A DNA stretch of 37,184 nt from Candidatus Moraniibacteriota bacterium (lineage in GTDB: Bacteria > Patescibacteriota > Minisyncoccia > CAIUEV01): NCBI GenBank assembly GCA_016867255.1, contig VGKB01000002.1, forward strand, positions 1-37,184. Reading direction: 5' to 3'. Under the pieces are notes generated by a model, which was not told where the DNA came from, searched no databases, and saw only the letters and a program-made list of their open reading frames with translations. Made by a program: the position numbers and the translations under genes. Shown here one piece after another: positions 1,021 to 33,598 of this stretch (position 1 is the stretch's first letter; the number at the start of each line of letters is the position of its first letter).

Positions 1021-1048
1021 AGGACATTTCTAAAAATTTGTAAGAAAA
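1021..1048. repeat. 28-nt exact repeat aggacatttctaaaaatttgtaagaaaa (second copy 3244..3271)
   Basis: Identical 28-mer at both sites, each just upstream of a promoter-like tgcttg(a)caat segment. Confidence 0.9.
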
Positions 1049-1050
1049 AT

Positions 1051-1207
1051 CCCGATTTTGCTTGACAATTTTGTATAAATGGCCAGAATTAAGAGTTGCC
1101 GTAATAGCAAGTTCTTTGAAAAAACCGAGTTTTACTCGGTCCACGCGAGAACCCGGTCTACCCGGTTAACTCGTGAACAATCTCCGTAGGAGGTGCCGCG
1201 ATGAACG
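1051..1207 (+). repeat. 157-nt promoter/leader repeat, copy A (copy B at 5155..5311)
   Basis: Manual alignment: offset exactly 4104 nt, no indels, 4 substitutions (1106, 1133, 1134, 1185). Confidence 0.95.
1062..1200 (+). promoter_or_regulatory. Promoter (TTGACA-17 nt-AGAATT) plus about 105-nt structured leader, family member A
   Basis: Perfect -35 at 1062-1067. Small stem TTGC(1096-1099)/GCAA(1107-1110) is followed by GTTCTTTGAAAAAA. Then hairpin CCGAG-N5-CTCGG (1125-1139) and CACGCGAG..CTCGTG enclosing AACCCGG..CCGGTT. SD GGAGG sits 7 nt before ATG 1201. Confidence 0.6.
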
Positions 1208-1335
1208 GCAAGCTGAGTTGGCTGAAGCGTGCCGCGAACTCCATCGCGGCGCAAACTAAGAAACCCTTAAACTTCTTATATGCTTGGCGAGTCCGCCTCG
1301 CCACCATCGGAACTTTCCACCATTATAAAAATTAA
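1201..1335 (+). CDS. Short 44-codon ORF, probable truncated paralogue of the 5305..5877 membrane protein
   Basis: Same SD and ATGAACG start as copy B. The N-terminus MNGKLSWLKRAANSIAAQTKK aligns with MNVFAEWLKRCAAFFAAHWEK of 5305..5877. Below the size cut-off of the ORF track. Confidence 0.35.
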   Translation: MNGKLSWLKRAANSIAAQTKKPLNFLYAWRVRLATIGTFHHYKN

Positions 1336-1351
1336 ATACCCCGTTGCAAGA

Positions 1352-1882
1352 TCAACAACTCCCCTTAATTCTAAAATGTCCCGTTGAGTGAGTGTGTTTA
1401 TATTTCATTTTGCCATGAGGTTTATCCCGAATAACTTTAAAATCTGGATTTGCGTGGAACTTTTCTGCTAATAATTTCAACTCCTCTTTCGTCGGGAAAA
1501 ATACTTCTGTTTTTCTCTTCTCCCTCATATTTTTTACTGTTTTGTCATCTGACATAAGCATTCTGACAATTATTTCCCCCCCTAGCCTAAGCTTCTCGTA
1601 GTATTTTTCGATGAGATCGTATGCTTCTTTTTTGGACATGAACATCAACACGTAAGAGAAAATAACCAAGTCAAATTTTATATTTAAATCAACATCCCTT
1701 ATATTTTTATTTATTAAGGTTATGCTTTTTTCTTGATGAGCTTTCTTGATGTTCCTCCTAGCCGCTTCAAAAATAGTTTTGTTTTTTTCAACTCCAAAAA
1801 CAATAAATCCCTTTTTAGCAAAATCAATTGCCTCTATAGCTTCACCGCAGCCAACATCTAAGAGTCTTTTTCTGTTCATCAT
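1352..1882 (-). CDS. Class I SAM-dependent methyltransferase
   Basis: Motif I LLDVGCGEAIEAIDFAKKG near the N-terminus and an acidic post-I residue (VFGVEKN); the size (176 aa) is typical of small Rossmann-fold methyltransferases. Confidence 0.8.
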   Translation of the reverse strand: MMNRKRLLDVGCGEAIEAIDFAKKGFIVFGVEKNKTIFEAARRNIKKAHQEKSITLINKNIRDVDLNIKFDLVIFSYVLMFMSKKEAYDLIEKYYEKLRLGGEIIVRMLMSDDKTVKNMREKRKTEVFFPTKEELKLLAEKFHANPDFKVIRDKPHGKMKYKHTHSTGHFRIKGSC

Positions 1883-1908
1883 ATTTAAAAATAGTAAATT
1901 TTGAGAAT

Positions 1909-1949
1909 GAGGCGTGACTTATTTGAATTTAAATGACGCCTCTTTTTTT
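1909..1949 (+). terminator. Hairpin plus T7 run, intrinsic-terminator-like, plus-strand orientation
   Basis: GAGGCGT (1909-1915) pairs with ACGCCTC (1936-1942), followed by TTTTTTT (1943-1949). No plus-strand CDS ends nearby, so it would end a transcript reading antisense through the methyltransferase gene. Confidence 0.4.
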
Positions 1950-2068
1950 GTCATAAACTTCTCCAACACTGAGGATCTTTTTTTCTCCAATCGCCGCTAT
2001 ATTGCCCATAAGAAACAGCTGGGCACCCTCGGCAATAAAACTTTAGTTCGCACCTAGCGCATTCCATT

Positions 2069-2095
2069 ATTTATAGCAAGGCGCTGTCCTTGAAA
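2069..2095. repeat. 27-nt perfect direct repeat atttatagcaaggcgctgtccttgaaa, copy 1
   Basis: Identical to 2958..2984. Contains the hairpin CAAGG-cgctgt-CCTTG. Lies 51 nt past the doc stop. Confidence 0.95.
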
Positions 2096-2146
2096 ATTTG
2101 TGAAATGACGACAGGGATCCCCCTCATTGGCGATCTTTCTGGAAAT

Positions 2147-2575
2147 TTACTTAATGTAGCTAATCAGGTAGGTGTCAATAAATTTCTTGATGGCCGCTAC
2201 GGTTTCGTCTTTTAATTTTGGATTGCTTTCCGCCACCCACTTGGCAAAATTGTATAATTCCCTGTTGTCGACTTTCACCCATTTCTTGTTCTTGTAGAGA
2301 AAATAAAACAAGGTGGTCATGGCTATCCGCTTGTTGCCATTTTCGAAAGGATGGTTCTTTATCATTAAATAAAACAAGATGGAAGCTTTGCCCAAAAGCC
2401 CCTGGTACAGTAATTTTTTCCCAAAAGTTTGAAATGGAACCGCCACACAGCTTTCTAATATCCCCGGAAAGCGTGAATTAAAATCGGGGATCGGTTCGTC
2501 CCAGCGCATCATTTCCCTCGCCAGAATATGGGTTACGTGTTTGATTTCAAAAATGGTTAGCGGTTTTATTTTCAT
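2147..2575 (-). CDS. doc: Doc (death-on-curing) / Fic-family toxin
   Basis: The Fic/Doc active-site motif HPFENGNKRIAM matches the Doc variant HxFx(D/E)GNKR. 142 aa; 4-nt ATGA overlap with the upstream HTH gene. Confidence 0.85.
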   Translation of the reverse strand: MKIKPLTIFEIKHVTHILAREMMRWDEPIPDFNSRFPGILESCVAVPFQTFGKKLLYQGLLGKASILFYLMIKNHPFENGNKRIAMTTLFYFLYKNKKWVKVDNRELYNFAKWVAESNPKLKDETVAAIKKFIDTYLISYIK

Positions 2576-2826
2576 TCCTTCCCTAATAAAATTAGTGTTT
2601 CTTTGTATTCTTTGACCGTTTTCCGCACCGATTTTTCAATTTCTTTTTTCTCTTTTTCGGACGGTTCCTTTTTAAAAATATCTGGAAGGTTTTTCCTCTC
2701 AATGGCATAGATCCGACCGATTTTTTCCGCCTTTAACTTGCCCGACTTTATCTTTTTAAACACGGCGATCCGGCTGATTCCCAAAATTTTCGCCATTTCG
2801 GCAGTAGTGAAATGTTTTTTTATCAT
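2572..2826 (-). CDS. Helix-turn-helix DNA-binding protein, probable antitoxin of Doc
   Basis: The N-terminal excisionase/MerR-like HTH is FTTAEMAKILGISRIAVFKKIKSGKLKAEKIGRIYAI. It has a charged C-terminal tail and is translationally coupled to doc. Confidence 0.75.
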   Translation of the reverse strand: MIKKHFTTAEMAKILGISRIAVFKKIKSGKLKAEKIGRIYAIERKNLPDIFKKEPSEKEKKEIEKSVRKTVKEYKETLILLGKE

Positions 2827-2832
2827 GGGAGT

Positions 2833-2879
2833 ATTTTAATTTATGTTAACCATTTAGTCAATAGTTAACAATCGTTAAC
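2833..2879 (-). promoter_or_regulatory. Promoter of the HTH-doc operon with three GTTAAC palindromes (candidate operators)
   Basis: On the minus strand TTGACT (2856-2861), a 17-nt spacer and TAAAAT (2833-2838) sit 6 nt before the ATG. GTTAAC occurs at 2845-2850 (inside the spacer), 2864-2869 and 2874-2879. Confidence 0.55.
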
Positions 2880-2957
2880 CAATTTTGCTTGACTATACAA
2901 AAAAAGGTTTCAAAATAAATACCAGAAAAGGTTGTTTGGCTTCTTTGCTAATACTTA

Positions 2958-2984
2958 ATTTATAGCAAGGCGCTGTCCTTGAAA
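2958..2984. repeat. 27-nt perfect direct repeat, copy 2
   Basis: Identical to 2069..2095. Lies 132 nt upstream of the HTH gene start. Confidence 0.95.
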
Positions 2985-3089
2985 GCCCGCCAATTATTTG
3001 AATTTCTAATCACTGACGTCTTCAAAACGCAAAAAGTGAAAAAGCGGGAAATGAAAAGATGAAAAATAGACCAAAACTGGCCGAAACGC

Positions 3090-3118
3090 TTGACAAAACC
3101 GTGGTTATTTAATATTAC
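3090..3118 (+). promoter_or_regulatory. Promoter-like TTGACA-17 nt-TATTAC with no adjacent CDS
   Basis: cttgacaaaaccgtggttattt (3089-3110) differs at one base from the promoter core at 14371-14392. The next plus-strand CDS starts at 3357. Confidence 0.45.
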
Positions 3119-3243
3119 TATTTCAGTAAAGTGCGATTATTTATACTTTAATGAAACAGAAAAAGTTAGTTCTCTTGGTCGTGTCCGAAACTTCCACGAT
3201 TCTCTGGAAAGAGAAATAAAGAGATACCTATGATCCTAAAAAT

Positions 3244-3271
3244 AGGACATTTCTAAAAATTTGTAAGAAAA
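3244..3271. repeat. Second copy of the 28-nt repeat at 1021..1048
   Basis: Exact 28/28 match, followed by a degenerate version of the copy-A promoter (tgcttgcaat vs tgcttgacaat). Confidence 0.9.
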
Positions 3272-3356
3272 CCTGTCAAATGCTTGCAATAAAAATTTTT
3301 TAGTGTAGAAATAATCTAAAATGATGATTATTCTTATAACATAACTTCAAAAACCC

Positions 3357-4292
3357 ATGCCGCTGATAAATAACGACTTAAAAATTGTGGAGTTTTTCCG
3401 AAAAAATTTCAAAGAAGTTGAAAATAAATTAAGGAAAAAGAGAATAGTAATAATCTACGGTGGATTTTCTGAGGAAAGGGGAACTTCAATTGAAAGTGGT
3501 AGTTCGGTTTACAAAGAGCTTAAAAAAAACGGTTTTAAAACGATCAAGATTGATCCTTCGCAAAGAAATTTTATCCCCCTTCTAAATAAAAAAGTCGACC
3601 TTGTTTTTAATTGCCTCCATGGTTCCTTTGGGGAAAGCGGTCATCTCCCAGCAATTTTAGATTATCTAAAAGTACCCTATACGTTTTCTGGGGTTTACGC
3701 TTCTGCCGTTACAATGGATAAAATTTATTTTAAATCGATTGCCAAGAAATTAGGATTTAATTGTCCTTTAGACAATCTTGATAAGGATAAATTATCCAAA
3801 AAACAAACTAGATTCATTTATAAAAAAATCAGAGGCGGTAGTAGTAAGGGCATGCGAATAGTTGACACAATTAGGCCAAAAAATGGATGTTTTGTCGAGG
3901 AGTTCGTTGACGGAAATTTTTTAACAATGGGGATTTTTGAACAAAAGGGGTCATTTTACCCTTTGGGAATAGTATCTTTTATAGCCAGGGAGAGAGAATT
4001 TTACGATGAAGCAGCTAAGTATCAAGGGCTATACAAATATAGTAAATATAGCGGAGCAAACGCGGAGAAGATTAGAGAAATATCTATAAAGGTTTCTGAT
4101 TTTTTGGATATAAAAGGCGCTGCCCGCCTTGATTTTATCGAAAAGGATAGCCAGCTTTTCCTGCTGGAAATTAACAGTGTGCCCGGCATCTACCCTAAAA
4201 GTAATTTGGCTTGTTCCGCCCGGCTCGCGAATTTTAGCTACTATGAATTACTGGTTTGGATACTAAACAACGCCGGTTATTCAAAATTATAA
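3357..4292 (+). CDS. ddl: D-alanine--D-alanine ligase family ATP-grasp enzyme
   Basis: Three Ddl-like segments: N-terminal RIVIIYGGFSEERGTSIESG, then VDLVFNCLHGSFGESGHLPAILDYLKVPYTFSG, and C-terminal ARLDFIEKDSQLFLLEINSVPG. The central domain looks shortened, so the true substrate is uncertain. Confidence 0.7.
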   Translation: MPLINNDLKIVEFFRKNFKEVENKLRKKRIVIIYGGFSEERGTSIESGSSVYKELKKNGFKTIKIDPSQRNFIPLLNKKVDLVFNCLHGSFGESGHLPAILDYLKVPYTFSGVYASAVTMDKIYFKSIAKKLGFNCPLDNLDKDKLSKKQTRFIYKKIRGGSSKGMRIVDTIRPKNGCFVEEFVDGNFLTMGIFEQKGSFYPLGIVSFIAREREFYDEAAKYQGLYKYSKYSGANAEKIREISIKVSDFLDIKGAARLDFIEKDSQLFLLEINSVPGIYPKSNLACSARLANFSYYELLVWILNNAGYSKL

Positions 4293-4298
4293 TTCTAT

Positions 4299-4952
4299 AT
4301 GGGTTACGAAAAATCAAATCTCAACGATGGAAATGAGAGAGAAAAAACAGAAAGCATTATTATTGAGAACGTTCCGTTTGTTACGCAACTATACGATACA
4401 GATAATTATCAGATTCTAGGCTTTAAAGACTTAGCTGAAGCCGAACACTGGTCAAAAAGAGACTGTGGAATAGTTTGTATTGAAATGGCAGTGAGGTTTT
4501 TTCTTCCGGATCTCAAGATAAGAACAAAGGAATTAATTAATATGGGATTGCAAATCCACGCTTATAAAGAAAATGTTGGTTGGATACACGATGGTTTAGT
4601 AGAAATTGCTACCAGGTTGGGCTTGAAAGCTAGCCGGGAAAGTATCGGAGGAGATCTAGAGAAAATTAAAAACCACTTGGAGGAAAACAGACTGGTGATA
4701 GCATCCATATCGCATGGTTTTGAGGTGGGAAAAGAATATAAAGAAGAAAATGGATCAGTTTATATTGTACCGCGAGGGGGTCACTTGGCGGTTATATTCG
4801 GGATAACCGAAAAACTAGGGAAAATTAAGAGTATTTATCTTCACCACCCTTCTCCATACAAAACATATAGCTGGAAAAACTATTCAGTTTCAGCTAACAA
4901 ATTTATGGGTTCTTTCTCCGAAAGAGGAAACATCATTTCCCTGGGTAAGTAA
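4299..4952 (+). CDS. C39-like (papain-fold) cysteine peptidase/acyltransferase domain protein
   Basis: Catalytic-Cys context RDCGIVCIEMAV and downstream His context PRGGHLAVIFG match the Peptidase_C39_2 / BtrH_N pattern. Starts 6 nt after the ATP-grasp gene. Confidence 0.6.
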   Translation: MGYEKSNLNDGNEREKTESIIIENVPFVTQLYDTDNYQILGFKDLAEAEHWSKRDCGIVCIEMAVRFFLPDLKIRTKELINMGLQIHAYKENVGWIHDGLVEIATRLGLKASRESIGGDLEKIKNHLEENRLVIASISHGFEVGKEYKEENGSVYIVPRGGHLAVIFGITEKLGKIKSIYLHHPSPYKTYSWKNYSVSANKFMGSFSERGNIISLGK

Positions 4953-5154
4953 AGATTTTGTCGTTCCAAGCCGACAGAGAAAAAATAAGGTTTATTATTG
5001 ACTATTGCGATAAAAATAACATCGATTACATCGGCCAAACTGGGTTAACCCCAACCCTGCCTGTATAAATCTCGGGTGTCTTTTATATTTTTAAAGCTAC
5101 AATGTTTTTTCGGATCATCAATAATAGAATAGAGGGGAGATTTTAGCCCGAAAC

Positions 5155-5311
5155 CCCGATTTTGCTTGACAATTTTGTATAAATGGCCAGAATTAAGAGT
5201 TGCCGTAATGGCAAGTTCTTTGAAAAAACCGAGTTTCGCTCGGTCCACGCGAGAACCCGGTCTACCCGGTTAACTCGTGAACAATCTCTGTAGGAGGTGC
5301 CGCGATGAACG
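5155..5311 (+). repeat. 157-nt promoter/leader repeat, copy B
   Basis: See copy A (1051..1207). Confidence 0.95.
5166..5304 (+). promoter_or_regulatory. Promoter plus structured leader, family member B
   Basis: Same architecture as member A. The 1106 a-to-g change lengthens the small stem to TTGCC/GGCAA, and the two changes at 5237-5238 fall in the loop of the CCGAG/CTCGG hairpin. Confidence 0.6.
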
Positions 5312-5877
5312 TTTTCGCTGAGTGGCTGAAGAGATGCGCCGCGTTCTTCGCGGCCCATTGGGAAAAACTGAAAAAGCTGGGAATTACTGTTATTGGATGG
5401 ACTAGCAATAGCGCCGTGGAGGCCGCGTTTAATTACGTGATCTACCCATTCATTATTGTGAAGTTTGGCGTTTTGCTTGGCGTTTCCATTGCGGTAATAG
5501 CTTCTTTCACAATTTGTTGCCTGACTTTTCGTTTTTACGATTGGTCTCAAAAGGACTGGTTCGGAATCGAGAAGATAAAAGAGATTCGCGAAGGAAAGGG
5601 AGATACAAAGGTTGGATGGTTCGCTTCGCGTTTTTTAAAAGGTAGCAAGTGGTTGGCTTTTGTCTACATCACATTCAAATTTGATGCTTTTATGGCAACC
5701 ATATTCATGCGGGAAGGAGCGTATCAATTCAACGAACTGAGCCGGAGAGACAAAAAAATCTTCCTGTTTAGCTTCTTCCTTAGCGCCATCACATGGTGGC
5801 CACTAGTTTGCGGGGTTCTCTATGGAGGAGAGTGGGCCTGGGAAACTTGGTTCAAAGATCTCGCAAACATTTTTTAG
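5305..5877 (+). CDS. Polytopic membrane protein (about 4-5 TM), function unknown
   Basis: Strong SD GGAGG. Hydrophobic segments include YVIYPFIIVKFGVLLGVSIAVIASFTICCL and IFLFSFFLSAITWWPLVCGVLY. Followed by a strong terminator. Confidence 0.8.
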   Translation: MNVFAEWLKRCAAFFAAHWEKLKKLGITVIGWTSNSAVEAAFNYVIYPFIIVKFGVLLGVSIAVIASFTICCLTFRFYDWSQKDWFGIEKIKEIREGKGDTKVGWFASRFLKGSKWLAFVYITFKFDAFMATIFMREGAYQFNELSRRDKKIFLFSFFLSAITWWPLVCGVLYGGEWAWETWFKDLANIF

Positions 5878-6610: not shown

Positions 6611-7901
6611 GTTTTTTTCTATCCTCTTTGATAAATTTTAACCCGATGTCTGTTCGGTAATATTTCTTTGGTATCACTACTTTTTCGATAATCGAATAGA
6701 CTTTCTTTCTGGCTTCCTTAATTGTTTTTCCTACTCCAGAAACGTGCATAATATATCCGCTATTTGCACAAATGTAATATTCTCCGGTCCTTTTCCTTGC
6801 TACCTCTTCGAGGTGAATATGTTTTTGATCTCCGATCTTAAAATTATCTTTAAAATATATCATTAGCCCTTTTGGAGAAAAACTTGTAAACATATTCCGA
6901 TAATAAGGGAATGGTGGAGCCGCCACAAGAACAACTATTCCAAATCCCTTCTTCCACCCCAGATTAAAATTTTTCCCATCAGCAACAGCCTTGAGAAACT
7001 CTGCCCAAGAAGAATTGTGAATCTCCATTTGCAATTGAGTAGCTGGGTATCCAAATCTTGCAGTAGCCTCAAGGGGAAAAACTCCTCTTCGATTAACAAT
7101 GCAGTTTATTGCAATGTCGCCACGAAAATTAATTCTCGCAAGATACTCCTTGAGCTTTGATAAAGTTTCTGAGTATACTTTATTTTTTTCATCATTCGAG
7201 TACCACATAAGAGTACCCATCTCGTCTGTCTTCGGGCCAACTCCCCCGTTAAAAAAATCTTTGTACTCAAAACTAATTTCGATCGGTCCAACCCAATTTT
7301 TCCCGTTAAAATATCTTGCTATGCTAATCTCTACACCCTTAATTCTTTTTTGCAAATCAAATTGAGAACAATTTTTATTTGTGTAATAACTACATTTATA
7401 ATTTTCTAATAGGCTTATCAGATCTCGGTTATCCTTAAATTTGCTTACGTAATTTAAAGTTTTATTACTGTCTCCGCTTTGTTTAATTACCCATGGACCA
7501 GGGTTGCTCTTTAAAAAATCAATGCCTTCTTTTATGTCGTAAAAGGTGGTCGATGGGGAAACGTTCATACCGACAAAACTAAAAATTTTCTGCCCATATT
7601 GCCTGTCTTTTTCTAATTTATCTCCAAGCTTACAGCCTCCCACTACAGAATATCCTTCATTCCTCAATTCATCCTGAACTTTTCCCATGCCAACATCATC
7701 AAAAACAATTAGCCCTTCTTTGCCAACCCAACTAACCCCTTTGTCCAGGTCGTCAATCTTTTCAACAACACCCTCTAAGATTTTCCTAATATCCTTATTC
7801 TTATCTTTTATAAACCACTTTACGTGGTTTCGCTCCCCCTTGAGCTTACAGCAGAGACTTGCTCCGTGGGCATCGGTTGGCGAAACAAAAAGAATACGCA
7901 T
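6588..7901 (-). CDS. PurD-like (phosphoribosylamine--glycine ligase family) ATP-grasp enzyme
   Basis: Segments matching PurD: GLIVFDDVGMGKVQDELRNEGYSVVGG, GPWVIKQSGD, GPKTDEMGTLMWY and FRGDIAINCIVNRRGVFPLEATARFGYPATQ (compare GPNTGGMG and EFNCRFGDPETQ of PurD). No other pur genes in the window. Confidence 0.6.
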   Translation of the reverse strand: MRILFVSPTDAHGASLCCKLKGERNHVKWFIKDKNKDIRKILEGVVEKIDDLDKGVSWVGKEGLIVFDDVGMGKVQDELRNEGYSVVGGCKLGDKLEKDRQYGQKIFSFVGMNVSPSTTFYDIKEGIDFLKSNPGPWVIKQSGDSNKTLNYVSKFKDNRDLISLLENYKCSYYTNKNCSQFDLQKRIKGVEISIARYFNGKNWVGPIEISFEYKDFFNGGVGPKTDEMGTLMWYSNDEKNKVYSETLSKLKEYLARINFRGDIAINCIVNRRGVFPLEATARFGYPATQLQMEIHNSSWAEFLKAVADGKNFNLGWKKGFGIVVLVAAPPFPYYRNMFTSFSPKGLMIYFKDNFKIGDQKHIHLEEVARKRTGEYYICANSGYIMHVSGVGKTIKEARKKVYSIIEKVVIPKKYYRTDIGLKFIKEDRKKLKEWGYL

Positions 7902-8085: not shown

Positions 8086-9927
8086 ATGCTTTGCCTAGAT
8101 TTTGAAACCCCACATTTTCTAGTTTTTGCGAGTACGACTCCTTCTCTTATTTATTTCTCTCATATACCTGCGATGTTGCTATCGTTATTGATGGGATTTT
8201 TTATATTCATAAAAAATAAGAAAGCATTAATTTCGCAAATTTTGTTTACTTTATCTATAACGTTCTCTTTGTCATGCTTTGTCTTACTTATTACTTGGAC
8301 TAATAATGACACCAGCATTATAATGTTTGTTTGGTCAATTTTTGGAATTTTGTATCTTCTGACATTCTTTTTCTCTTTCTATCTAGTATACCTTTTTATA
8401 AAACAGCGTGATATTAGTTTAAAAACAAAAATTTTTCTATCGTTGTTTCTTGCGCCAACCATTTTTTTCGCATCATCAAAATATAATCTAAATGTTTTTG
8501 ACTTAAAACTGTGTGGCATAACCCAAGAAGGAAGATATTTCACAAATTATTATTATATTGCAGGATTAGCGATTTTTATATGGATGTCTATTGTTTCAAT
8601 AACCAATTATTTAAAAATTAAAACTATTTTTAGAAAACAGATTTTACTCTTGCTCGGAGGCGTCAGTTTTTTCTTACTATCACTCTTTTTTACAGGTTTT
8701 TTAGCAAGTCTCTTAGTGGACTATGGGGTATTTAGTGACTATTCTGTGGAGCAATATGGACTATTCGGAATGCTGGTGTTTTTAGCTTTTCTTTCATATC
8801 TAATCATTAAATATCAAGCCTTCGATATTAAAGTTATTGCAGCTCAGTTCCTTACCGTTACGGTGTGGATTGGGGTGTTTTCCCAGTTTTTCATTGTGCA
8901 GGAGTTGAGTAATCAGATTCTTACTGGCGTGACGCTTGCCCTTGTAACGATTTTTGGGTATATGCTTTTTCGCGCCATCAAAGAAGATGTTTCCCTTACC
9001 GAACAATTGCGGCTCGCTTCCGGCAAGCTGGCAATCTTAAACACCAAACTCAAAGAAATTGACGCCGCCAAATCCGAATTCGTCTCCATTGCCTCGCACC
9101 AACTACGCACCCCCCTCACCTCGGTGAAGGGCTACGCCTCCCTCATTTTGGAAAACACCTTCGGAAAAATCCCTCTCCGCCAGCGCGAAGCGGTGGAAAA
9201 ACTCTATGTCAACAACGAAAAACTGGTGCTTTTGGTGGAAGATATGCTCAACGCTTCCCGCCTGGAAGCCGGCCGGCTGGAATACGAATTTGAAGAGGTG
9301 GACGTCCCGCCTCTCATCAAAGAGATAGTGGATAATATGCAGCTCCACGCCAAAAGCAAAAATCTCTTGCTTAAATACACCGCTCCTTCCAAAACCCGTT
9401 CGGCTTCGCTCAGGGCAAGCTCTTTAATCGCCCTTGCCGACAAGCGCAAGGTGGCCGAAATTATCGCCAATCTCATTGACAACGCCGTGAAATACTCCCC
9501 TGCCCTTCATGAAGGGCAGAACAATACGGCTGAAAAACAAACTATAACCGTCAGCGTCTCCCGCTGCGAGTTGGCAAGGCCGGTCGGTAAAGCGAAAAAC
9601 ACCAAAATTCTAAACGGCGCCGGGGTGCGCGTAAGCGTTGCCGACAACGGAATCGGCATGAGCGAAAAGGAACTGAAAGAAATATTTGAGAAGTTTAAAA
9701 AAGGAGAAACGAAAAATGAGAAACAGGAAACGGGATCGTCCTTTATAGTTAAAAGAGAGAAAGAAGGAGAAATTGATAACAAAATAGACAATATCACCGG
9801 CACCGGCCTCGGCGTCTACATCTCCCGCCAGATGGCCCGCGCCATGGGCGGCGATCTGTGCGCCACTTCGCCGGGCAAAGGCAAAGGGAGTACATTTACC
9901 CTAGAATTACCCCTGGTTAAAAAATAG
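8086..9927 (+). CDS. Multi-pass membrane sensor histidine kinase
   Basis: About 270 aa of N-terminal transmembrane helices. H box SEFVSIASHQLRTPLTSVKGY, N box NLIDNAVKYS, G1 DNGIGM and G2 GTGLGVY, with a charged insertion of about 35 aa between the F box and G2. No response regulator nearby. Confidence 0.9.
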   Translation: MLCLDFETPHFLVFASTTPSLIYFSHIPAMLLSLLMGFFIFIKNKKALISQILFTLSITFSLSCFVLLITWTNNDTSIIMFVWSIFGILYLLTFFFSFYLVYLFIKQRDISLKTKIFLSLFLAPTIFFASSKYNLNVFDLKLCGITQEGRYFTNYYYIAGLAIFIWMSIVSITNYLKIKTIFRKQILLLLGGVSFFLLSLFFTGFLASLLVDYGVFSDYSVEQYGLFGMLVFLAFLSYLIIKYQAFDIKVIAAQFLTVTVWIGVFSQFFIVQELSNQILTGVTLALVTIFGYMLFRAIKEDVSLTEQLRLASGKLAILNTKLKEIDAAKSEFVSIASHQLRTPLTSVKGYASLILENTFGKIPLRQREAVEKLYVNNEKLVLLVEDMLNASRLEAGRLEYEFEEVDVPPLIKEIVDNMQLHAKSKNLLLKYTAPSKTRSASLRASSLIALADKRKVAEIIANLIDNAVKYSPALHEGQNNTAEKQTITVSVSRCELARPVGKAKNTKILNGAGVRVSVADNGIGMSEKELKEIFEKFKKGETKNEKQETGSSFIVKREKEGEIDNKIDNITGTGLGVYISRQMARAMGGDLCATSPGKGKGSTFTLELPLVKK

Positions 9928-9933
9928 ATCAGC
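9799..9933 (+). repeat. 135-nt direct repeat, copy 1 (functional 3' end of the kinase gene)
   Basis: Recurs at 13611..13745. The first 56 nt are identical, with about a dozen substitutions after that. Confidence 0.9.
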
Positions 9934-10099: not shown

Positions 10100-11389
10100 T
10101 TACAATAGGCTCCTGAGAATTCGTCCCTTTTTTGAATGGTGACCCCAAGTTGAATTAGGCACTTCCCAAAGAAACCTCTCGGCCTCCCTTTTGACCGATT
10201 CTGCGCTTAATTCACCAGTCCCCATAGTAACCGTGGAAGGATCACAATCATCAGGATCCAACAATGTGATGAGTCCTTTTTCAACAGCCATATTGTAGAG
10301 TGGCGTTCCAAAAAATGGCGTTGAAACAAACAAAGCGATATCGTCAGCTTCTAGTTCCCTTGCAAGTTTTATACTCATATCAACATCTTCACTCGTTTCA
10401 CCTGGCGTGCCCAGCTGAAAAGATACTTTTACTCTTAACCCCAGCTTTTTGGCTGCAGAAATTATTCTTTTGACTTTATCCGGATCCAGTTTCTTGCCTA
10501 GTATTTGTTGGATTTTGGGAGACCCAGACTCGACTCCGAAGAAAATTCTATCGAGTCGGTTCTTTGAGAACTCCTTTAACAACTCTTCCTCGACAACATC
10601 AATTCTTGCTTGACATTCCCAATCAATCCCTTTGGCACTTAACATCGAAGCTATCTCTAAAGAAACTCTTGGCCTCATAGGAAAAATATCATCCAGTATT
10701 CTCAAGTAATTTGCAGGGTATCTGCCCAATAGAGTATTCAATATTTGGAGTATCCTACTGACGCTTCTGAACCTAACTCTTCTTTCCCAAAAAGCCGATT
10801 GGGAGCAATAAATACAACCAAAAGAGCAGCCTCTCCCTGTTGATAATGTTGCAACGAGCTTTCCTTCTTCTTTTTGCGGATACCGCTCCAAGAAGAGAAG
10901 ATCGAAGGCTGGATCAGGCAAGAAGTCCAGATTCGGTACAGTTACTCTTTTATTAACAACGACCCCTTCTTCTCCTTTGTAGGCAATCCCCGGCACCATT
11001 CGTAAGGTTCCCTTTTGTCTTAGCAATAAGTTTGCTAATTTGAGAAAGGGCAACTCTCCTTCGCCCAATACACAAAAATCAACGTTGTCGTTGGCTAAAC
11101 ACTCTGAATAGCAGAAAGTGGGGTAGTATCCTCCAAAAACTACGCTCGCGTTCATATTCTCTTTAACATGACTTGCGAGCGCTAATCCCCTAGCCACAAG
11201 GCCGCAAGGAACTGAAATGCCAACAATTTTGGCTCCGGAATCCGTGATATCTTCTTCTGTTGTTTCAGGCCTAGAAAAATCAACAATTCCTACGGAAAAA
11301 CCATGGTTTTTGATAAAGGCTGCTAGTTCGGCAAGCCCCATCGCTGGATACGGAGACTTCTCCCCTGGGTTTACAAGCAGAATTTCCAT
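10100..11389 (-). CDS. Class B (B12-binding domain) radical SAM enzyme
   Basis: N-terminal Rossmann-like B12-binding region (ILLVNPG...IVGISV...VVFGG), then the cluster motif GRGCSFGCIYC (CxxxCxxC). Strong SD AGGAGG 9 nt before the ATG. Confidence 0.85.
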   Translation of the reverse strand: MEILLVNPGEKSPYPAMGLAELAAFIKNHGFSVGIVDFSRPETTEEDITDSGAKIVGISVPCGLVARGLALASHVKENMNASVVFGGYYPTFCYSECLANDNVDFCVLGEGELPFLKLANLLLRQKGTLRMVPGIAYKGEEGVVVNKRVTVPNLDFLPDPAFDLLFLERYPQKEEGKLVATLSTGRGCSFGCIYCSQSAFWERRVRFRSVSRILQILNTLLGRYPANYLRILDDIFPMRPRVSLEIASMLSAKGIDWECQARIDVVEEELLKEFSKNRLDRIFFGVESGSPKIQQILGKKLDPDKVKRIISAAKKLGLRVKVSFQLGTPGETSEDVDMSIKLARELEADDIALFVSTPFFGTPLYNMAVEKGLITLLDPDDCDPSTVTMGTGELSAESVKREAERFLWEVPNSTWGHHSKKGRILRSLL

Positions 11390-11520
11390 AATCCTTTGCC
11401 CTCCTTTTTTGAACTTGATAATTTTGCTTCGTCTCCTTACAGAAGTTTTACTCAGGCTTTAAAGGACTAATAATAAATAAATCACAAAGTAAAAATATGT
11501 AAAGAGGTTACTTATAAAAA

Positions 11521-12501
11521 CTAACTCACGTAACTTTTCACCCACTCTGTTAGTAAACTTTTATACCTGGTTGGGGATTCCCCAATTAAGAATCTTGCTT
11601 TTGAAATCTCGTCTTTTATCTTTTTTTCGCATTTGGTAATGACTTTATACCTATTTAAGACATGCATGACTTTTTCTGCCCGTCTTTTGCCAATGGCTTT
11701 TCCCCAATAATTATCTACAAATTCTTTTTTGTCTTTCTCTGAAGCATCGTTAAAAAAGACGGCTATCGGGTAACTAATAGTTTCTCCCTCCAAGTCTTTC
11801 ATCTTAGGTTCATAATCATTGTCATCATAATAGATTCCGAAATCATCCAAGTCATTTTTTATCTGCCCTACGATGCCCATTATCTTGATAAACCCGACTA
11901 TTTCCCGTTTCTCTTTTTCACTCAATGAGTCATCAATTATTGTTGTTGCCTCAAGAGGCCATCTCCCAAGGGCTGTTTTCCTTAGGTAATTGTTCAACAA
12001 GGAATGGGTTGATGCTTTATCAAACGAAAAGTTATTTTGCTCTATCTGTGCTTTTAACGTCATTTTTATCGCTTTATGTAGGGTTAGCTTGATTTCCTTA
12101 TGTTCGCTAAAGTTTTTTACTGCCAATTCTTCGGAAATAATAAACCCTAGAGCAGCGGCATGAACTGCTTCCAGCAAGCCAAACTTCAACCAGACAGCCT
12201 TCTTGCCTCTACGTATCCTAGTTTTATCGCCAATGTCGTCTAATATTAAAATAGCTGACCAAGATATTTCTGAAATTGCCCCCACTAAAGCTCCTCTGCT
12301 ATAGTCATTGAGAAGTAAAGACGGCAATCCTGATCTAAACCGATTTCTGCCAGATTTAATTGTGTATGATAGCGCTCTTGCTTCTTTTACTTCTCCGATA
12401 TATTCTTTTATCAGAGGCTTCGTGAATTCTTCAAAAGCTCGATTAAACTCTCGAAATAAATTCTTCTCAGGTTTTTTATGTTTATCCATTTTAATTCTCA
12501 T
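11521..12501 (-). CDS. trans-Polyprenyl diphosphate synthase (FPPS/GGPPS family)
   Basis: First Asp-rich motif LILDDIGDKTRIRRGK and second motif GQIKNDLDDF at the expected spacing. 326 aa. Confidence 0.8.
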   Translation of the reverse strand: MRIKMDKHKKPEKNLFREFNRAFEEFTKPLIKEYIGEVKEARALSYTIKSGRNRFRSGLPSLLLNDYSRGALVGAISEISWSAILILDDIGDKTRIRRGKKAVWLKFGLLEAVHAAALGFIISEELAVKNFSEHKEIKLTLHKAIKMTLKAQIEQNNFSFDKASTHSLLNNYLRKTALGRWPLEATTIIDDSLSEKEKREIVGFIKIMGIVGQIKNDLDDFGIYYDDNDYEPKMKDLEGETISYPIAVFFNDASEKDKKEFVDNYWGKAIGKRRAEKVMHVLNRYKVITKCEKKIKDEISKARFLIGESPTRYKSLLTEWVKSYVS

Positions 12502-12529
12502 TAAAAAATTATTTATTTTATAAAAAAAT

Positions 12530-13513
12530 ATGAACGCGACTTGGGAGCAAGAAAAAATAGTAATCGTTGATAAAAACGATAATGAGTTGGGAACTATGGA
12601 TAAAAATATCTGCCATAAGGTTAAGGGAATTCTTCACAGAGCCATAACAATATTTATTATAAACGATAAAAACCAGATACTGATAACCAAACGAAGCACA
12701 TACAAAAAACTTTGGCCAAAACACTGGGAGTCGTCTTGTTCTACTCACGTTCTTGAAAACGAAAGTTACGTGGAGGCCGGCGAAAGACGAATAAAGCAAG
12801 AGTTAGGGATAAGTTGTAAGCTAAACTACTTATTAAAATTCAATTATAAAGCCGCATACAAAAATATTGGCTCAGAAAATGAAATTTGCGCTTTACTGAT
12901 TGGCAAGTTTAATGGGAGTATTAACTCCAATCCCCGAGAAATTTCCGATCATCGCTGGGTTTCTTTTGACGATCTGGGATATGCTATTGAATTCGATGGT
13001 GGAAGATATGTCCCCTGGTTAGCTGTCGCTTTCAAAGAATTTATTAAGATTAAAGAGATTGTCGGCAACAAGCTTCAAGTTTGTGTCGCAGCAATTGTAG
13101 TAAAGGGTGGTAAAATACTAATCTTCAAAGAAAAAAATAATAAAGCTTACGAAAAAGCAAAAGGTTTGTGGACGGTACCCATAGGAAAGACCAGGGAGAG
13201 TGAACTACTACTAAAATCAGTCTTGAGGGAAACTAGGGAGGAAGTTGGTTACAGCATTGAAATCCTAGGATTGATTGGAGTCTATGAGTTTTTTTCGTCA
13301 AAAACGAATAACCGCATCCTGGGTCTCGCTTTCAAGGCAATCCCAATAGATAATAAAAGAAGTCGACTGCGAGAATTTAAAAAATTATATTGGGTTGATC
13401 CAAAAAAATTGCTCCAGGATAAGAAATTAAAATTTAGAAAAGGTGTAAAAGCAATTATCAAAGACTTTATCGGCGGTAAACTATTAGAAGTTAAACAAAT
13501 AAAATCTCTATAG
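12530..13513 (+). CDS. idi: Isopentenyl-diphosphate delta-isomerase (type 1) fused to a second Nudix hydrolase domain
   Basis: The N-terminal half aligns with E. coli Idi: LHRAITIFIINDKNQILITKRSTYKKLWPKHWESSCSTH vs [39 protein letters not shown], and ENEICALL vs ENEVCPVF. The C-terminal half has its own Nudix box GKTRESELLLKSVLRETREEVGY. Confidence 0.85.
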   Translation: MNATWEQEKIVIVDKNDNELGTMDKNICHKVKGILHRAITIFIINDKNQILITKRSTYKKLWPKHWESSCSTHVLENESYVEAGERRIKQELGISCKLNYLLKFNYKAAYKNIGSENEICALLIGKFNGSINSNPREISDHRWVSFDDLGYAIEFDGGRYVPWLAVAFKEFIKIKEIVGNKLQVCVAAIVVKGGKILIFKEKNNKAYEKAKGLWTVPIGKTRESELLLKSVLRETREEVGYSIEILGLIGVYEFFSSKTNNRILGLAFKAIPIDNKRSRLREFKKLYWVDPKKLLQDKKLKFRKGVKAIIKDFIGGKLLEVKQIKSL

Positions 13514-13575
13514 GCATGCACTAAAGTTCCAAAGTTTTCTCCCTTTTGGATAGAGGGGGGAGATAAAAGAGGGGG

Positions 13576-13604
13576 TTGACACCGAAAGTAGTCATGGATA
13601 AAAT
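13576..13604 (+). promoter_or_regulatory. Promoter-like TTGACA-17 nt-TAAAAT reading into the kinase remnant
   Basis: TTGACA at 13576-13581, TAAAAT at 13599-13604. Confidence 0.4.
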
Positions 13605-13610
13605 ACCAGT

Positions 13611-13745
13611 GGCACCGGCCTCGGCGTCTACATCTCCCGCCAGATGGCCCGCGCCATGGGCGGCGACCTCTACGCCACCTCCCCCGGGAAGAATAAAGGG
13701 AGTACCTTTACCCTAGAATTACCCCTGGTTAAAAAATAGATCAGC
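13611..13745 (+). pseudogene. Remnant 3' end of a histidine-kinase gene (repeat copy 2)
   Basis: Translates in frame as GTGLGVYISRQMARAMGGDLYATSPGKNKGSTFTLELPLVKK*, but an in-frame TAA lies at 13599-13601 and there is no kinase body upstream. Confidence 0.8.
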
Positions 13746-13841
13746 TGTTTATTTTGCTCTACTCCATCCAAAGCTCCTTTTCCTGTAAAATGAGGGGGCT
13801 ATATTCTGTTAAAAAAATTGCATGAACATACCCAAAAAACC

Positions 13842-13985
13842 TTGACAAAAATGAATAAAAATTGATAATTAAGGGTTGTTAAAAGGGCAAGTTCTTTAAA
13901 AAATGTTCGTAGGAACCCAAGGTGTTAAGCTATAACACTTTGGGTTCCTACGAACAAGACCAGACAAGACGAGGAGGGAAAAACC
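13842..13985 (+). promoter_or_regulatory. Promoter (TTGACA-17 nt-ATAATT) plus structured leader, family member C
   Basis: AAGGGTTGTTAAAAGGGCAAGTTCTTTAAAAAA (13871-13903) matches members A and B. Then a roughly 22-bp hairpin at 13905-13955 (gttcgtaggaacccaaggtgtt / aacactttgggttcctacgaac). SD GGAGGG precedes ATG 13986. Confidence 0.6.
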
Positions 13986-14285
13986 ATGAAAAAAATCGCG
14001 GTGTTGGGTTTCGTGTTCTTTCTTTTGTGCGTTGCTCTCACATTAGGAACGTGGTGGCTGACCAAGCCGTTGTTGCCATCCACTACGAACCTGATCACCT
14101 CTGCGCCGGCAGAGGAGGTTTTTGACAGGGTTCGCTCAGGGACATCAGACCGGGAGGTATTTGATTACCTCCGGGGTGGTGGTGGACCCAGACCAGATCC
14201 ATCCACCACAACGACAACGCCCACCGAACCCAGCAGACCCAAGCCGGGACCTAACCGTAACCGGCCGATGCCGATAAAGATCTGA
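13986..14285 (+). CDS. Small secreted or membrane-anchored Pro/Thr-rich protein
   Basis: Signal/anchor MKKIAVLGFVFFLLCVALTLGTWW, then a low-complexity tail (GGGGPRPDPSTTTTTPTEPSRPKPGPNRNRP). Good SD and its own terminator. Confidence 0.7.
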   Translation: MKKIAVLGFVFFLLCVALTLGTWWLTKPLLPSTTNLITSAPAEEVFDRVRSGTSDREVFDYLRGGGGPRPDPSTTTTTPTEPSRPKPGPNRNRPMPIKI

Positions 14286-15348: not shown

Positions 15349-15387
15349 AGGCGGGATTTATCCCGCCTTCTTTATTTGTTTATTTTT
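15349..15387 (+). terminator. Rho-independent terminator
   Basis: AGGCGGGA-ttta-TCCCGCCT followed by tctttatttgtttattttt. Overlaps the 3' end of the convergent vapC. Confidence 0.75.
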
Positions 15388-15761
15388 AAACCCTTAATTA
15401 CCTTCTTAAGTTTTTCGTCAAAAGTTACTATTTGGTACTGATCGCTCAAGCACACAAGCGAAACATCCACAAATGAAAGATTCTTGCCTGAGCTTCTTTC
15501 AAAACGTCGGACCGTTTCCCAAAATAAATCTTCCGCCGAAAATAAAATCCTCACGTCTTCATTGTCAACAATTTCGGCTAGAAACATATTGGCTATTTTC
15601 TTGGAGCTCTTAGCCGAAAGCACGGTACAGGTTTCCATAATTACGTACTCTGTCACAGCAATTGGAAAAGCAATGCCCCCAAGAAGCTTTCTGGCCCTTT
15701 GATGCAGACTGTCTTTTTCGTGAAAAAACGCAATCCACACGCTCGAGTCTATTACTTTCAT
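15372..15761 (-). CDS. vapC: PIN-domain toxin (VapC family)
   Basis: N-terminal MKVIDSSVWIAFF with the first catalytic Asp, further acidic residues (MET, NEDV, FVDV), 129 aa, 4-nt overlap with the upstream antitoxin gene. Confidence 0.8.
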   Translation of the reverse strand: MKVIDSSVWIAFFHEKDSLHQRARKLLGGIAFPIAVTEYVIMETCTVLSAKSSKKIANMFLAEIVDNEDVRILFSAEDLFWETVRRFERSSGKNLSFVDVSLVCLSDQYQIVTFDEKLKKVIKGLKINK

Positions 15762-15997
15762 ACGCCGTACACTATTTTATCAATCTTTTTGCTTAGATTT
15801 CTATCTTTAGACTTAAATTTGATTTTTTCAAGATCTCTGAAGGTATATCTCGGTTTTACCAAGTTCCCTATAGGCTCAATACGGAAAACCGGTTTAGAGC
15901 TTCTAACTACAATAAAGGAGCTGCCTGCCAAAGCCTCACAGGAGATCCTTCTTAAATCCTTATGTAATTTTTTAATGCCGATTATTTGCGCTTCCAT
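15758..15997 (-). CDS. Phd/YefM-like antitoxin
   Basis: 79 aa. The N-terminal pattern IGIKKLHKDLRRISCEALAGSSFIVVRSSKPVFRIEPI resembles Phd/YefM. Coupled to the PIN gene. Confidence 0.65.
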   Translation of the reverse strand: MEAQIIGIKKLHKDLRRISCEALAGSSFIVVRSSKPVFRIEPIGNLVKPRYTFRDLEKIKFKSKDRNLSKKIDKIVYGV

Positions 15998-33482: not shown

Positions 33483-33513
33483 ATAAATAATTAAAAATTT
33501 AAAAATAATAAAG

Positions 33514-33598
33514 TGCCGGAGAGGAGAGTTGAACTCCTACCACCCTAAGGGTGACAACGCCCTGAACGTTGCGTGTCTGCCAATTCCACCACTCCGGC
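33514..33598 (-). tRNA. tRNA-Leu (anticodon CAG)
   Basis: The reverse complement folds by hand. Acceptor GCCGGAG/CTCCGGC, D arm GTGG..ACAC, anticodon stem CAACG/CGTTG with loop TTCAGGG, long variable arm CACCC-tta-GGGTG, T arm AGGAG-TTCAACT-CTCCT, discriminator A. No encoded CCA. Confidence 0.9.

Follow-up and report, generated by a model that had tools for sequence, protein, structure and literature searches.

What do three tightly packed genes of a bacterial contig make together? The genes lie at positions 10100-13513 of the window, the whole 37,184-nucleotide stretch analysed here (positions 1-37,184 of contig VGKB01000002.1). They encode a radical S-adenosylmethionine (SAM) enzyme of class-B type, a prenyltransferase-like (PT-like) protein and a protein with a domain resembling isopentenyl diphosphate isomerase (IDI). 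The original prediction, made from the same DNA, saw in them a self-sufficient module that turns isopentenyl diphosphate (IPP) into a modified polyprenyl product. Our analysis supported this prediction in part. We tentatively favour a different answer, namely that the trio is a short specialised pathway that would give a modified small molecule derived from isoprenoids and that is carried by Patescibacteria as a mobile cassette.

The list of open reading frames (ORFs) and Pfam searches showed that the three genes are real, and the motifs quoted earlier, CSFGCIYC, DDIGD and NDLDD, were each present in the translations. What had been overlooked is that the third gene (12530-13513, plus strand, 327 aa) is a fusion, in which Pfam recognised two NUDIX stretches: an IDI-like part (aa 1-175) is followed by a canonical Nudix hydrolase (aa 176-327). 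The region is organised as follows:

10100-11389, minus strand: class-B-type radical SAM gene, 429 aa, Pfam PF02310 and PF04055
11390-11520, minus strand: spacer between the PT-like and radical SAM genes, carrying the strong Shine-Dalgarno sequence AAAGGAGGG for the radical SAM gene
11521-12501, minus strand: PT-like gene, 326 aa, Pfam PF00348 (polyprenyl_synt) with 68 bits
12502-12529, no strand: AT-rich gap of 28 bp separating the divergent PT-like and IDI-Nudix genes
12530-13054, plus strand: IDI-like (type 1) N-terminal domain, aa 1-175 of the fusion, assigned by NCBIfam and an alignment with IDI
13055-13513, plus strand: MutT-type Nudix hydrolase C-terminal domain, aa 176-327 of the fusion, assigned by its Nudix box and BLAST

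The Shine-Dalgarno sequence AAAGGAGGG is located about 8 nt 5' of the ATG of the radical SAM gene, as had been claimed. The distance of 28 bp between the divergent start codons was confirmed from the sequence; with an alternative start of the PT-like gene at Met5 (12489), which gives 322 aa as in the database gene call P0128, the gap would be 40 bp. No Shine-Dalgarno sequence was found on either side of the 28-bp gap. The same divergent layout, with a gap of 29 bp, was observed at the homologous locus L001. A scan of the 11390-11520 spacer for small ORFs revealed no plausible peptide ORF, and a promoter and terminator scan gave results no better than those for shuffled sequence. With Rfam, no RNA element, riboswitches included, was detected near the trio, and the window gave no cobalamin riboswitch.

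A partnership of three enzymes

The neighbourhood search in other genomes that had been proposed was run, and it found the PT-like, radical SAM and Nudix proteins together in about nine lineages and in three gene orders. All loci of the radical SAM clade with sufficient flanking sequence also encode the PT-like and Nudix proteins, and within this clade the radical SAM gene was never found without a PT-like gene. The order [IDI-Nudix]<- ->PT-rSAM (rSAM, radical SAM) is present in the window and at L001. The order PT-rSAM-Nudix occurs at L004 and L019, and the truncated contigs L023 and L028 show rSAM-Nudix. At L008, L014 and L017 the order is rSAM-Nudix-PT. Several loci have overlapping or abutting ORFs within the trio, and the divergences of the three proteins correlate pairwise with r = 0.75-0.93 (21 non-independent pairs from 7 loci). 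The three-gene grouping is far beyond chance, and the constant company of the PT-like gene in three different orders bears out the earlier view of the trio as a functional unit.

The composition of the trio had to be revised. At the loci other than the window and L001 the Nudix proteins stand alone (138-153 aa), and BLAST matched them to the C-terminal domain of the fusion, not to its IDI-like N-terminal domain. Because of this homology, the conserved trio consists of the PT-like protein, the radical SAM enzyme and the Nudix hydrolase. The IDI, which had been named as the third member, is an add-on domain found in two of the roughly nine lineages, the window and L001. No further neighbour gene was conserved across the loci compared, and PT and Nudix neighbours were absent beside more distant radical SAM homologues (<=35% identity; three loci examined). 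Literature searches found no description of the combination of PT-like, radical SAM and Nudix proteins or of the defence candidate PDC-M51, in keeping with the earlier statement that the trio matches no described pathway.

Two gene pairs were considered as extra partners and rejected as lineage-specific: a second radical SAM gene with a gene for an HExxH protein at L001, and a SPASM radical SAM gene with a HAD gene at L004. The L001 pair (11910-14046, 3' of the trio) encodes a SPASM-type radical SAM protein of 457 aa with a Cys-rich C-terminus and a 233-aa HExxH protein. Just upstream of it is a small Cys/Gly-rich ORF (11637-11846) that contains the stretch CGACASCTGGGGGKACKCTG. These L001 genes may be a separate cluster resembling those for ribosomally synthesised and post-translationally modified peptides (RiPPs).

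Sequence and structure of the three proteins

The AlphaFold model of the PT-like protein (predicted local distance difference test score, pLDDT, 89.8) has the all-alpha isoprenoid synthase fold. Foldseek gave template modelling (TM) scores of 0.83-0.85 to geranylgeranyl diphosphate synthase (GGPPS) and polyprenyl/decaprenyl synthases at 14-22% identity, with P. horikoshii GGPPS 1wy0, the decaprenyl diphosphate synthase 3mzv and 3oyr among the matches. None of the NCBIfam models for isoprenyl diphosphate synthases (IPPS) was passed, all scoring <=34 bits against equivalog cutoffs of 383-500. The PT-like family is isolated: about 16 clusters reached 440-484 bits with the family profile, the next protein had 66 bits, and P0158, a canonical polyprenyl synthetase of Patescibacteria, had just 39 bits.

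In 17 PT-like sequences the first Asp-rich motif and the following RRG (ILDDIGD...RRG) are invariant, and the KT motif is kept. Regions I and VI were aligned against 5h9d, 1wy0 and canonical IPPS of Patescibacteria and archaea. In region I, GGKRxR has become G(K/R)N49(R/K)FR with an invariant exchange of Lys for Asn, although a K or R directly precedes N49. The second Asp-rich motif DDxxD is changed to NDL(D/E)D with an invariant N212 (NDLDD in the window protein); its counterparts are DDVLD in 1wy0 and DDxLD in canonical sequences. The GK of region VI is replaced by Y226-E227 throughout the family. Chrysanthemyl diphosphate synthase also carries NDxxD at its second motif (bioRxiv 10.1101/169417). 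Compared with the trans-IPPS enzymes of PF00348, which include farnesyl diphosphate synthase (FPPS), GGPPS and the polyprenyl diphosphate synthases, the PT-like family thus shares the helical fold, the DDxxD first motif, RRG and KT. It differs in its low identity, in these three exchanges and in several new invariant Trp, Tyr and Gln residues, as well as in its isolation and its constant coupling to a radical SAM gene. A loss of the basic C-terminal tail of IPPS was also considered and dropped, since the family retains W-x-K/R near its end.

In established FPPS structures, the Lys of region I, the Asp of the second motif and the Lys of region VI contact IPP and the allylic diphosphates. Because the exchanges K to N, D to N and GK to YE affect these diphosphate-binding positions, ordinary chain elongation is doubtful, and with it the original assignment as a trans-prenyl diphosphate synthase that builds a polyprenyl chain. 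Binding and ionisation of an allylic diphosphate are still possible because the first Asp-rich motif, RRG, KT and most of the second motif are kept. We infer from the sequences that the PT-like enzyme probably still ionises an allylic diphosphate and is unlikely to be a normal processive elongase.

The distant relative P0145 reached 112 bits with the family profile and shares GRNRFRS, ILDDIAD..RRG, KKTALGRW and KNDLEN. At its locus L015 (787-3198) the P0145 gene overlaps a gene for a SPASM-type radical SAM protein, and a thymidylate-kinase-like gene is located just upstream. The neighbours encode a DUF294 nucleotidyltransferase (PDC-M70A), an HD-CE protein and an integrase. L015 may be a related system of a radical SAM and a PT-like protein. 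The genomic context of another relative, P0146, was uninformative.

The IDI-like domain of the fusion is borderline for the curated NCBIfam models, with scores of 127.7 for PRK03759 (cutoff 127) and 103.7 for TIGR02150 (cutoff 105.8). It aligns over its full length with the type 1 IDI of Salmonella and human, and the metal and diphosphate ligands, the catalytic Glu and the IDI-type RRxxxE box are all in place. With E. coli Idi and human IDI1 it has in common the length, the fold family, the His/His/His/Glu/Glu ligands, the catalytic Glu (ENE), the Tyr and the Trp. The catalytic-Cys motif is different: type 1 IDI has xNS(V/C)C(G/S)H, whereas the IDI-like domain has WESSCSTH and is fused to a Nudix domain. 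A Ser stands opposite C67 of E. coli, and the Cys is found one residue earlier, where it sits as C86 does in the human enzyme. With the catalytic Cys out of register, the earlier assignment as an IDI converting IPP to dimethylallyl diphosphate (DMAPP) may not hold.

The nearest relatives of the IDI-like domain are P0163 (548 aa) and P0165 (498 aa), in which IDI-like domains with WESSCSTH are fused to divergent polyprenyl_synt-like domains with NDxxD. The independent occurrence of IDI-Nudix and IDI-PT-like fusions is the strongest evidence that the cassette may handle C5 prenyl diphosphates. In a further protein, P0194 (542 aa), the IDI-like domain has WESSYSTH without a Cys, and the NDxxD of the PT-like fusion partner is degenerate. 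P0163, P0165 and P0194 appear to be an unstudied family of IDI-PT-like fusions.

In the C-terminal domain of the fusion the Nudix box GKTRESELLLKSVLRETREEVGY is intact (GKTRESE...RETREEVGY; the box is defined as GX5EX7REUXEEXGU, PMC5389931). It is kept in all eight full-length homologues, stand-alone or fused, and the truncated L028 copy matches as far as it extends. The PDB matches of this domain were weak and of MutT/NudG/NudJ type.

The radical SAM protein matched the Pfam families PF02310 (B12-binding, 53 bits, cutoff 32) and PF04055 (Radical_SAM, 81 bits). The CxxxCxxC cluster motif (C188/C192/C195) is invariant in the family alignment, and so is a WGHHSxKGR motif near the C-terminus. The nearest structures to its AlphaFold model (pLDDT 88) were AprD4, TsrM, MgmA (9CCB), OxsB, TokK and CysS with TM scores of about 0.69-0.79; the best four, AprD4, TsrM, MgmA and OxsB, had 0.72-0.79 at 14-22% identity. 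These relatives cover dehydration, methylation and ring contraction. With NCBIfam, the scores were 140 for ApyD (cutoff 750), 110 for BchE (481), 108 for HpnJ (578) and 107 for MgmA (360), and among the lipid subfamilies 70 for HpnR (650) and 79 for the predicted ladderane lipid radical SAM (360), in a comparison that left out the individual HpnP, BchQ/BchR and archaeal Tes/Grs families.

A place in a characterised subfamily was rejected, since the NCBIfam scores were below the cutoffs and the PDB sequence search and Foldseek gave generic matches. The radical SAM clade comprises about ten orthologues at 58-62% identity and a few more at 41-43%, and the bit score falls from 342 to 200 between it and generic class-B enzymes (<=35% identity). 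By its domain architecture we assign the protein to class B, where it would stand outside every characterised subfamily. The original description as a class-B enzyme with no assigned chemistry held, as the two domains are present and the model superposes on TsrM, OxsB, TokK and MgmA. The suggested Foldseek comparison did recover class-B structures, but reached no characterised subfamily that could be named as the nearest clade. The protein shares the N-terminal Rossmann-like B12-binding domain and the CxxxCxxC barrel with HpnP/HpnR, BchE, MgmA/QCMT, TokK, TsrM, OxsB and AprD4. Unlike the cassette enzyme, no characterised member of the class is known to be encoded together with an IPPS-fold enzyme and a Nudix hydrolase.

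The best matches of the radical SAM protein include peptide C-methylases (ApyD, 140 bits; MgmA/QCMT, about 107-110 bits), and ComQ is an IPPS homologue that prenylates ComX. Both points would suit a modification of peptides or proteins of the RiPP or ComQ kind, in which the IPPS-fold protein prenylates a peptide and the B12-type radical SAM enzyme C-methylates it. We regard this as very improbable. The scores are far under the cutoffs for these families (750 and 360), the small-ORF scan showed no conserved ORF beside the trio in any lineage, and the Nudix and IDI domains would be left unexplained. The SPASM radical SAM and HExxH genes downstream of the trio at L001 fit a peptide pathway, but these accessory genes are not conserved elsewhere.

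A repeat-flanked cassette and its hosts

Two direct repeats, missed in the original prediction, enclose the trio exactly:

9790-9933, plus strand: left direct repeat, made up of the final ~135 nt of the histidine kinase gene and a further 6 nt
13602-13745, plus strand: right direct repeat, which duplicates part of the histidine kinase 3' end at a displaced position

A repeat search, an alignment and blastn agreed on 144 nt at 90% identity. The histidine kinase gene (8086-9927) is intact, and the right copy keeps a recognisable reading frame and the stop codon. A multi-transmembrane histidine kinase that abuts the cassette could be counted in favour of a peptide-modifying system. However, the kinase is absent from the other loci, and its adjacency is best seen as an accident of the insertion site because its 3' end is duplicated. 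Only the three genes are found between the 144-nt repeats, with no integrase or recombinase among them. The G+C content at third codon positions (GC3) is 0.35-0.39 for the trio, compared to 0.48-0.55 for the genes of DnaE, RNase J, RelA and Bac_transf.

A comparable arrangement was observed at L004, where 75 nt from the 3' end of a HAD gene are repeated directly 5' of the PT gene and again directly 3' of the Nudix gene. Copies of the HAD-hydrolase 3' end are present at 7205-7279, 8828-8902 and 11848-11922, and copies of the sequence just past the HAD gene at 7283-7346, 12143-12206 and 12794-12857. These repeats divide three small cassettes, one with a 209-aa protein and AbiEii, one with PT-rSAM-Nudix and one with DUF4258/DUF2283, so that a single insertion site at L004 seems to have gathered a row of cassettes without integrases. 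At L001, the trio is part of an 11.6-kb segment that is bounded by 401-nt repeats and also holds an rve-family gene. From these sequence features, the trio is an accessory cassette of 3.7 kb that has moved horizontally in some lineages.

The cassette is rare. A search with the radical SAM family detected no member in the 185,579 GTDB species-representative genomes, which include the closest host relatives found (DnaE identity 66-67%), and none in the IMG/VR viral contigs. The 241 million JGI metagenome records yielded no more than about 11 loci. The PT-like family has about 17 sequences among 5.8 billion proteins, in a word-seeded search that distant members may escape.

The window also encodes DnaE, RNase J, RelA/SpoT, FtsQ, a prepilin peptidase and a large TrbL/VirB6-like protein, and from these the host is bacterial. 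Its DnaE is 66-67% identical to that of two metagenome-assembled genomes and 54-56% identical to that of Candidatus Moranbacteria/Moraniibacteriota, Parcubacteria and other Patescibacteria. These matches place the host in the Patescibacteria, near Moranbacteria, and bear out the earlier guess of a candidate phyla radiation (CPR) genome. As had been stated, no genes of the methylerythritol phosphate or mevalonate pathway were found among the larger ORFs of the window. The window does encode a polyprenyl-phosphate sugar transferase (Bac_transf, 26433-27824) and a protein of the D-Ala-D-Ala-ligase family (3357-4292). The host therefore uses polyprenyl carriers anyway, and an isoprenoid capacity is not as unexpected as it had seemed.

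Such a need for polyprenyl phosphate could be met by the trio itself, if it supplied short or long prenyl diphosphate or polyprenyl phosphate for the carrier lipid of the cell wall, with the radical SAM enzyme methylating or saturating the lipid and the Nudix hydrolase making the polyprenyl phosphate. The PT-like protein has no bulky residue at -4/-5 of the first Asp-rich motif, which suits longer products. In the deepest lineages, L008, L014 and L017, the trio is found amid housekeeping genes (Mur ligase, sugar-nucleotide enzymes, hrcA-grpE-dnaK, ksgA), and at L008 and L014 it adjoins the Mur ligase and sugar-nucleotide genes. We consider this housekeeping role improbable all the same. The rarity of the family, its absence from the closest relatives found, the position between direct repeats and the foreign-looking GC3 contradict the idea, raised with the original prediction, that the PT-like protein might be the only housekeeping synthase of the genome. 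In addition, a canonical polyprenyl synthetase of Patescibacteria, P0158, exists and is far from the PT-like family, the diphosphate-binding residues are replaced, and no obvious membrane-spanning segment was seen when the three protein sequences were read by eye.

The neighbourhood of some cassettes points in another direction. The repeat-flanked cassette is near a PIN gene in the window (15372-15761), near PemK at L001 and near AbiEii and DUF4258/DUF2283 at L004. It could thus be a nucleotide-directed system of the conflict or defence type that yields a toxic or signalling nucleotide analogue. The PT-like protein would prenylate a nucleotide or merely bind its diphosphate, the Nudix hydrolase would trim a nucleoside tri- or diphosphate to the monophosphate, and the radical SAM enzyme would methylate the nucleotide or dehydrate it like viperin or AprD4. 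The MutT/NudG-like character of the Nudix domain is consistent with this, and so is the setting of P0145, which is translationally coupled to the thymidylate-kinase-like protein (PADLOC PDC-M51B, 114 bits) and the SPASM radical SAM protein in a group that adjoins PDC-M70A and an integrase. The radical SAM and Nudix proteins of the window weakly matched the PADLOC candidates PDC-M51A (48-57 bits) and PDC-S07 (39-67 bits), but these matches are at the level of generic superfamilies and there was none for the PT-like protein. PADLOC gave no specific match of the trio proteins to any system model.

That a nucleotide can first be prenylated and then modified by a radical SAM enzyme is known from MiaA and MiaB, which act on tRNA (N6-isopentenyladenosine, i6A, to its 2-methylthio derivative, ms2i6A). 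The DMAPP-dependent transfer by MiaA comes first, and MiaB is among the structural matches of the cassette radical SAM protein (TM score ~0.66). MiaA differs in its fold (P-loop), and MiaB, a methylthiotransferase, has two clusters and a TRAM domain, neither of which is present in the cassette enzyme. To our knowledge, no IPPS-fold enzyme prenylates nucleotides. Moreover, no defence genes accompany the trio at L008, L014 and L017, and the absence from viral contigs also speaks against a conflict system. On balance we think it unlikely, with the carrier-lipid and the ComQ/RiPP-like explanations less likely still.

Several other features of the window were observed. A second pair of direct repeats (1047-1227 and 5151-5331, 182 nt, 94% identity) encloses about 4 kb with genes for a SAM methyltransferase (1352-1882), a Fic/DOC protein (2147-2575), a D-Ala-D-Ala-ligase-like ATP-grasp protein (3357-4292) and a C39-like peptidase (4299-4952). 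By its layout, this 1047-5331 segment suggests a further inserted cassette with flanking repeats. A tandem duplication of 55 nt without mismatches (33588-33642/33656-33710) overlaps the 5' end of the tRNA-Leu(CAG) gene (33513-33598, minus strand) and may be the remnant of an att site. Between the right repeat of the trio and the next ORF is a hairpin (13904-13956) with near-perfect 24-nt arms and a 5-nt loop, and the ORF at 13986-14285 encodes a small Pro/Thr-rich protein with an N-terminal hydrophobic segment. The PIN-domain toxin gene, about 1.6 kb from the right repeat, overlaps a small upstream ORF (15758-15997) for a putative antitoxin. Two histidine kinase genes are present: the first (10-363) is a C-terminal HATPase fragment at the window edge, and the second (8086-9927) has a long polytopic N-terminus. 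No response regulator adjoins either of them among the ORFs scanned.

The proposed pathway and its meaning

We return to the specialised isoprenoid pathway that we favour. Its core would be three co-evolving and co-transcribed enzymes. The IDI-like domain, present only in the sub-lineage of the window, would bind C5 prenyl diphosphates and probably interconvert IPP and DMAPP to feed the pathway. The PT-like enzyme would bind an allylic diphosphate and ionise it via Mg2+. Given the invariant replacement of three residues, the Lys of region I, the leading Asp of the second motif and the Lys of region VI, the PT-like enzyme would most likely make a single non-canonical coupling and not elongate processively with IPP. 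This could be an irregular joining of two prenyl groups, as in the NDxxD enzyme chrysanthemyl diphosphate synthase, or a transfer to an acceptor other than IPP. The radical SAM enzyme would modify an unactivated carbon of the substrate or product of the PT-like enzyme. C-methylation is the commonest outcome in its class, and dehydration or rearrangement would be equally allowed by its nearest structural relatives. Finally, the Nudix domain would cleave a diphosphate linkage, either from a prenyl diphosphate to the monophosphate or by trimming a nucleotide-type moiety, and would thereby release or activate the final small molecule. The product would be a dispensable specialised metabolite and not a carrier lipid; we would guess at a short prenyl (di)phosphate with a radical modification, or at a prenylated metabolite.

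A similar combination is known from pyrethrin biosynthesis, where chrysanthemyl diphosphate synthase does the irregular coupling and Nudix1 then turns the prenyl diphosphate into the monophosphate. The likeness lies in an FPPS-derived NDxxD enzyme together with a Nudix hydrolase; it is a resemblance only and implies no homology of the NDxxD motifs. The plant route has no radical SAM enzyme, and chrysanthemyl diphosphate synthase is a close paralogue of FPPS, whereas the PT-like family is very distant.

A number of observations weigh against this pathway. Every chemical step is deduced from family membership, with substrate and product predicted. The IDI-like domain may not be an isomerase at all: it has a Ser at the catalytic Cys position, a motif census showed many of its nearest homologues to be without the Cys, and seven of the nine lineages lack any IDI. 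The nearest solved relatives of the Nudix domain are nucleotide pyrophosphatases, although the match is weak (NudG CTPase, 30 bits). The coupling of P0145 to a thymidylate-kinase-like protein and a SPASM radical SAM protein in a defence-island setting hints at nucleotide rather than purely isoprenoid substrates. Cobalamin use by the radical SAM enzyme is predicted from its domain, and AprD4, its best structural match, has a B12-type domain but does not use cobalamin.

A bolder proposal, which we hold to be rather doubtful, is that an IPPS-fold family has abandoned chain elongation, has become obligately tied to a B12-type radical SAM enzyme and a Nudix hydrolase, and makes a new radical-modified prenyl or prenyl-nucleotide metabolite on a cassette that is mobile among ultra-small symbionts. 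Such a metabolite may mediate host interaction or conflict among these ultra-small symbiotic bacteria.

All parts of the cassette belong to known superfamilies, and they define two discrete clades, a rewired and isolated IPPS-fold family and a class-B radical SAM clade outside the known subfamilies. Both are directly testable, as three small soluble proteins can be co-expressed. An irregular or non-IPP prenyl transfer and a radical SAM reaction on a prenyl diphosphate would, if true, be new reactions for both families. The repeat-flanked layout illustrates how small integrase-less cassettes insert at the 3' ends of genes in CPR genomes. Patescibacteria are thought to be biosynthetically minimal, and a mobile three-enzyme cassette for a specialised isoprenoid would, if true, be an unusual trait among them.

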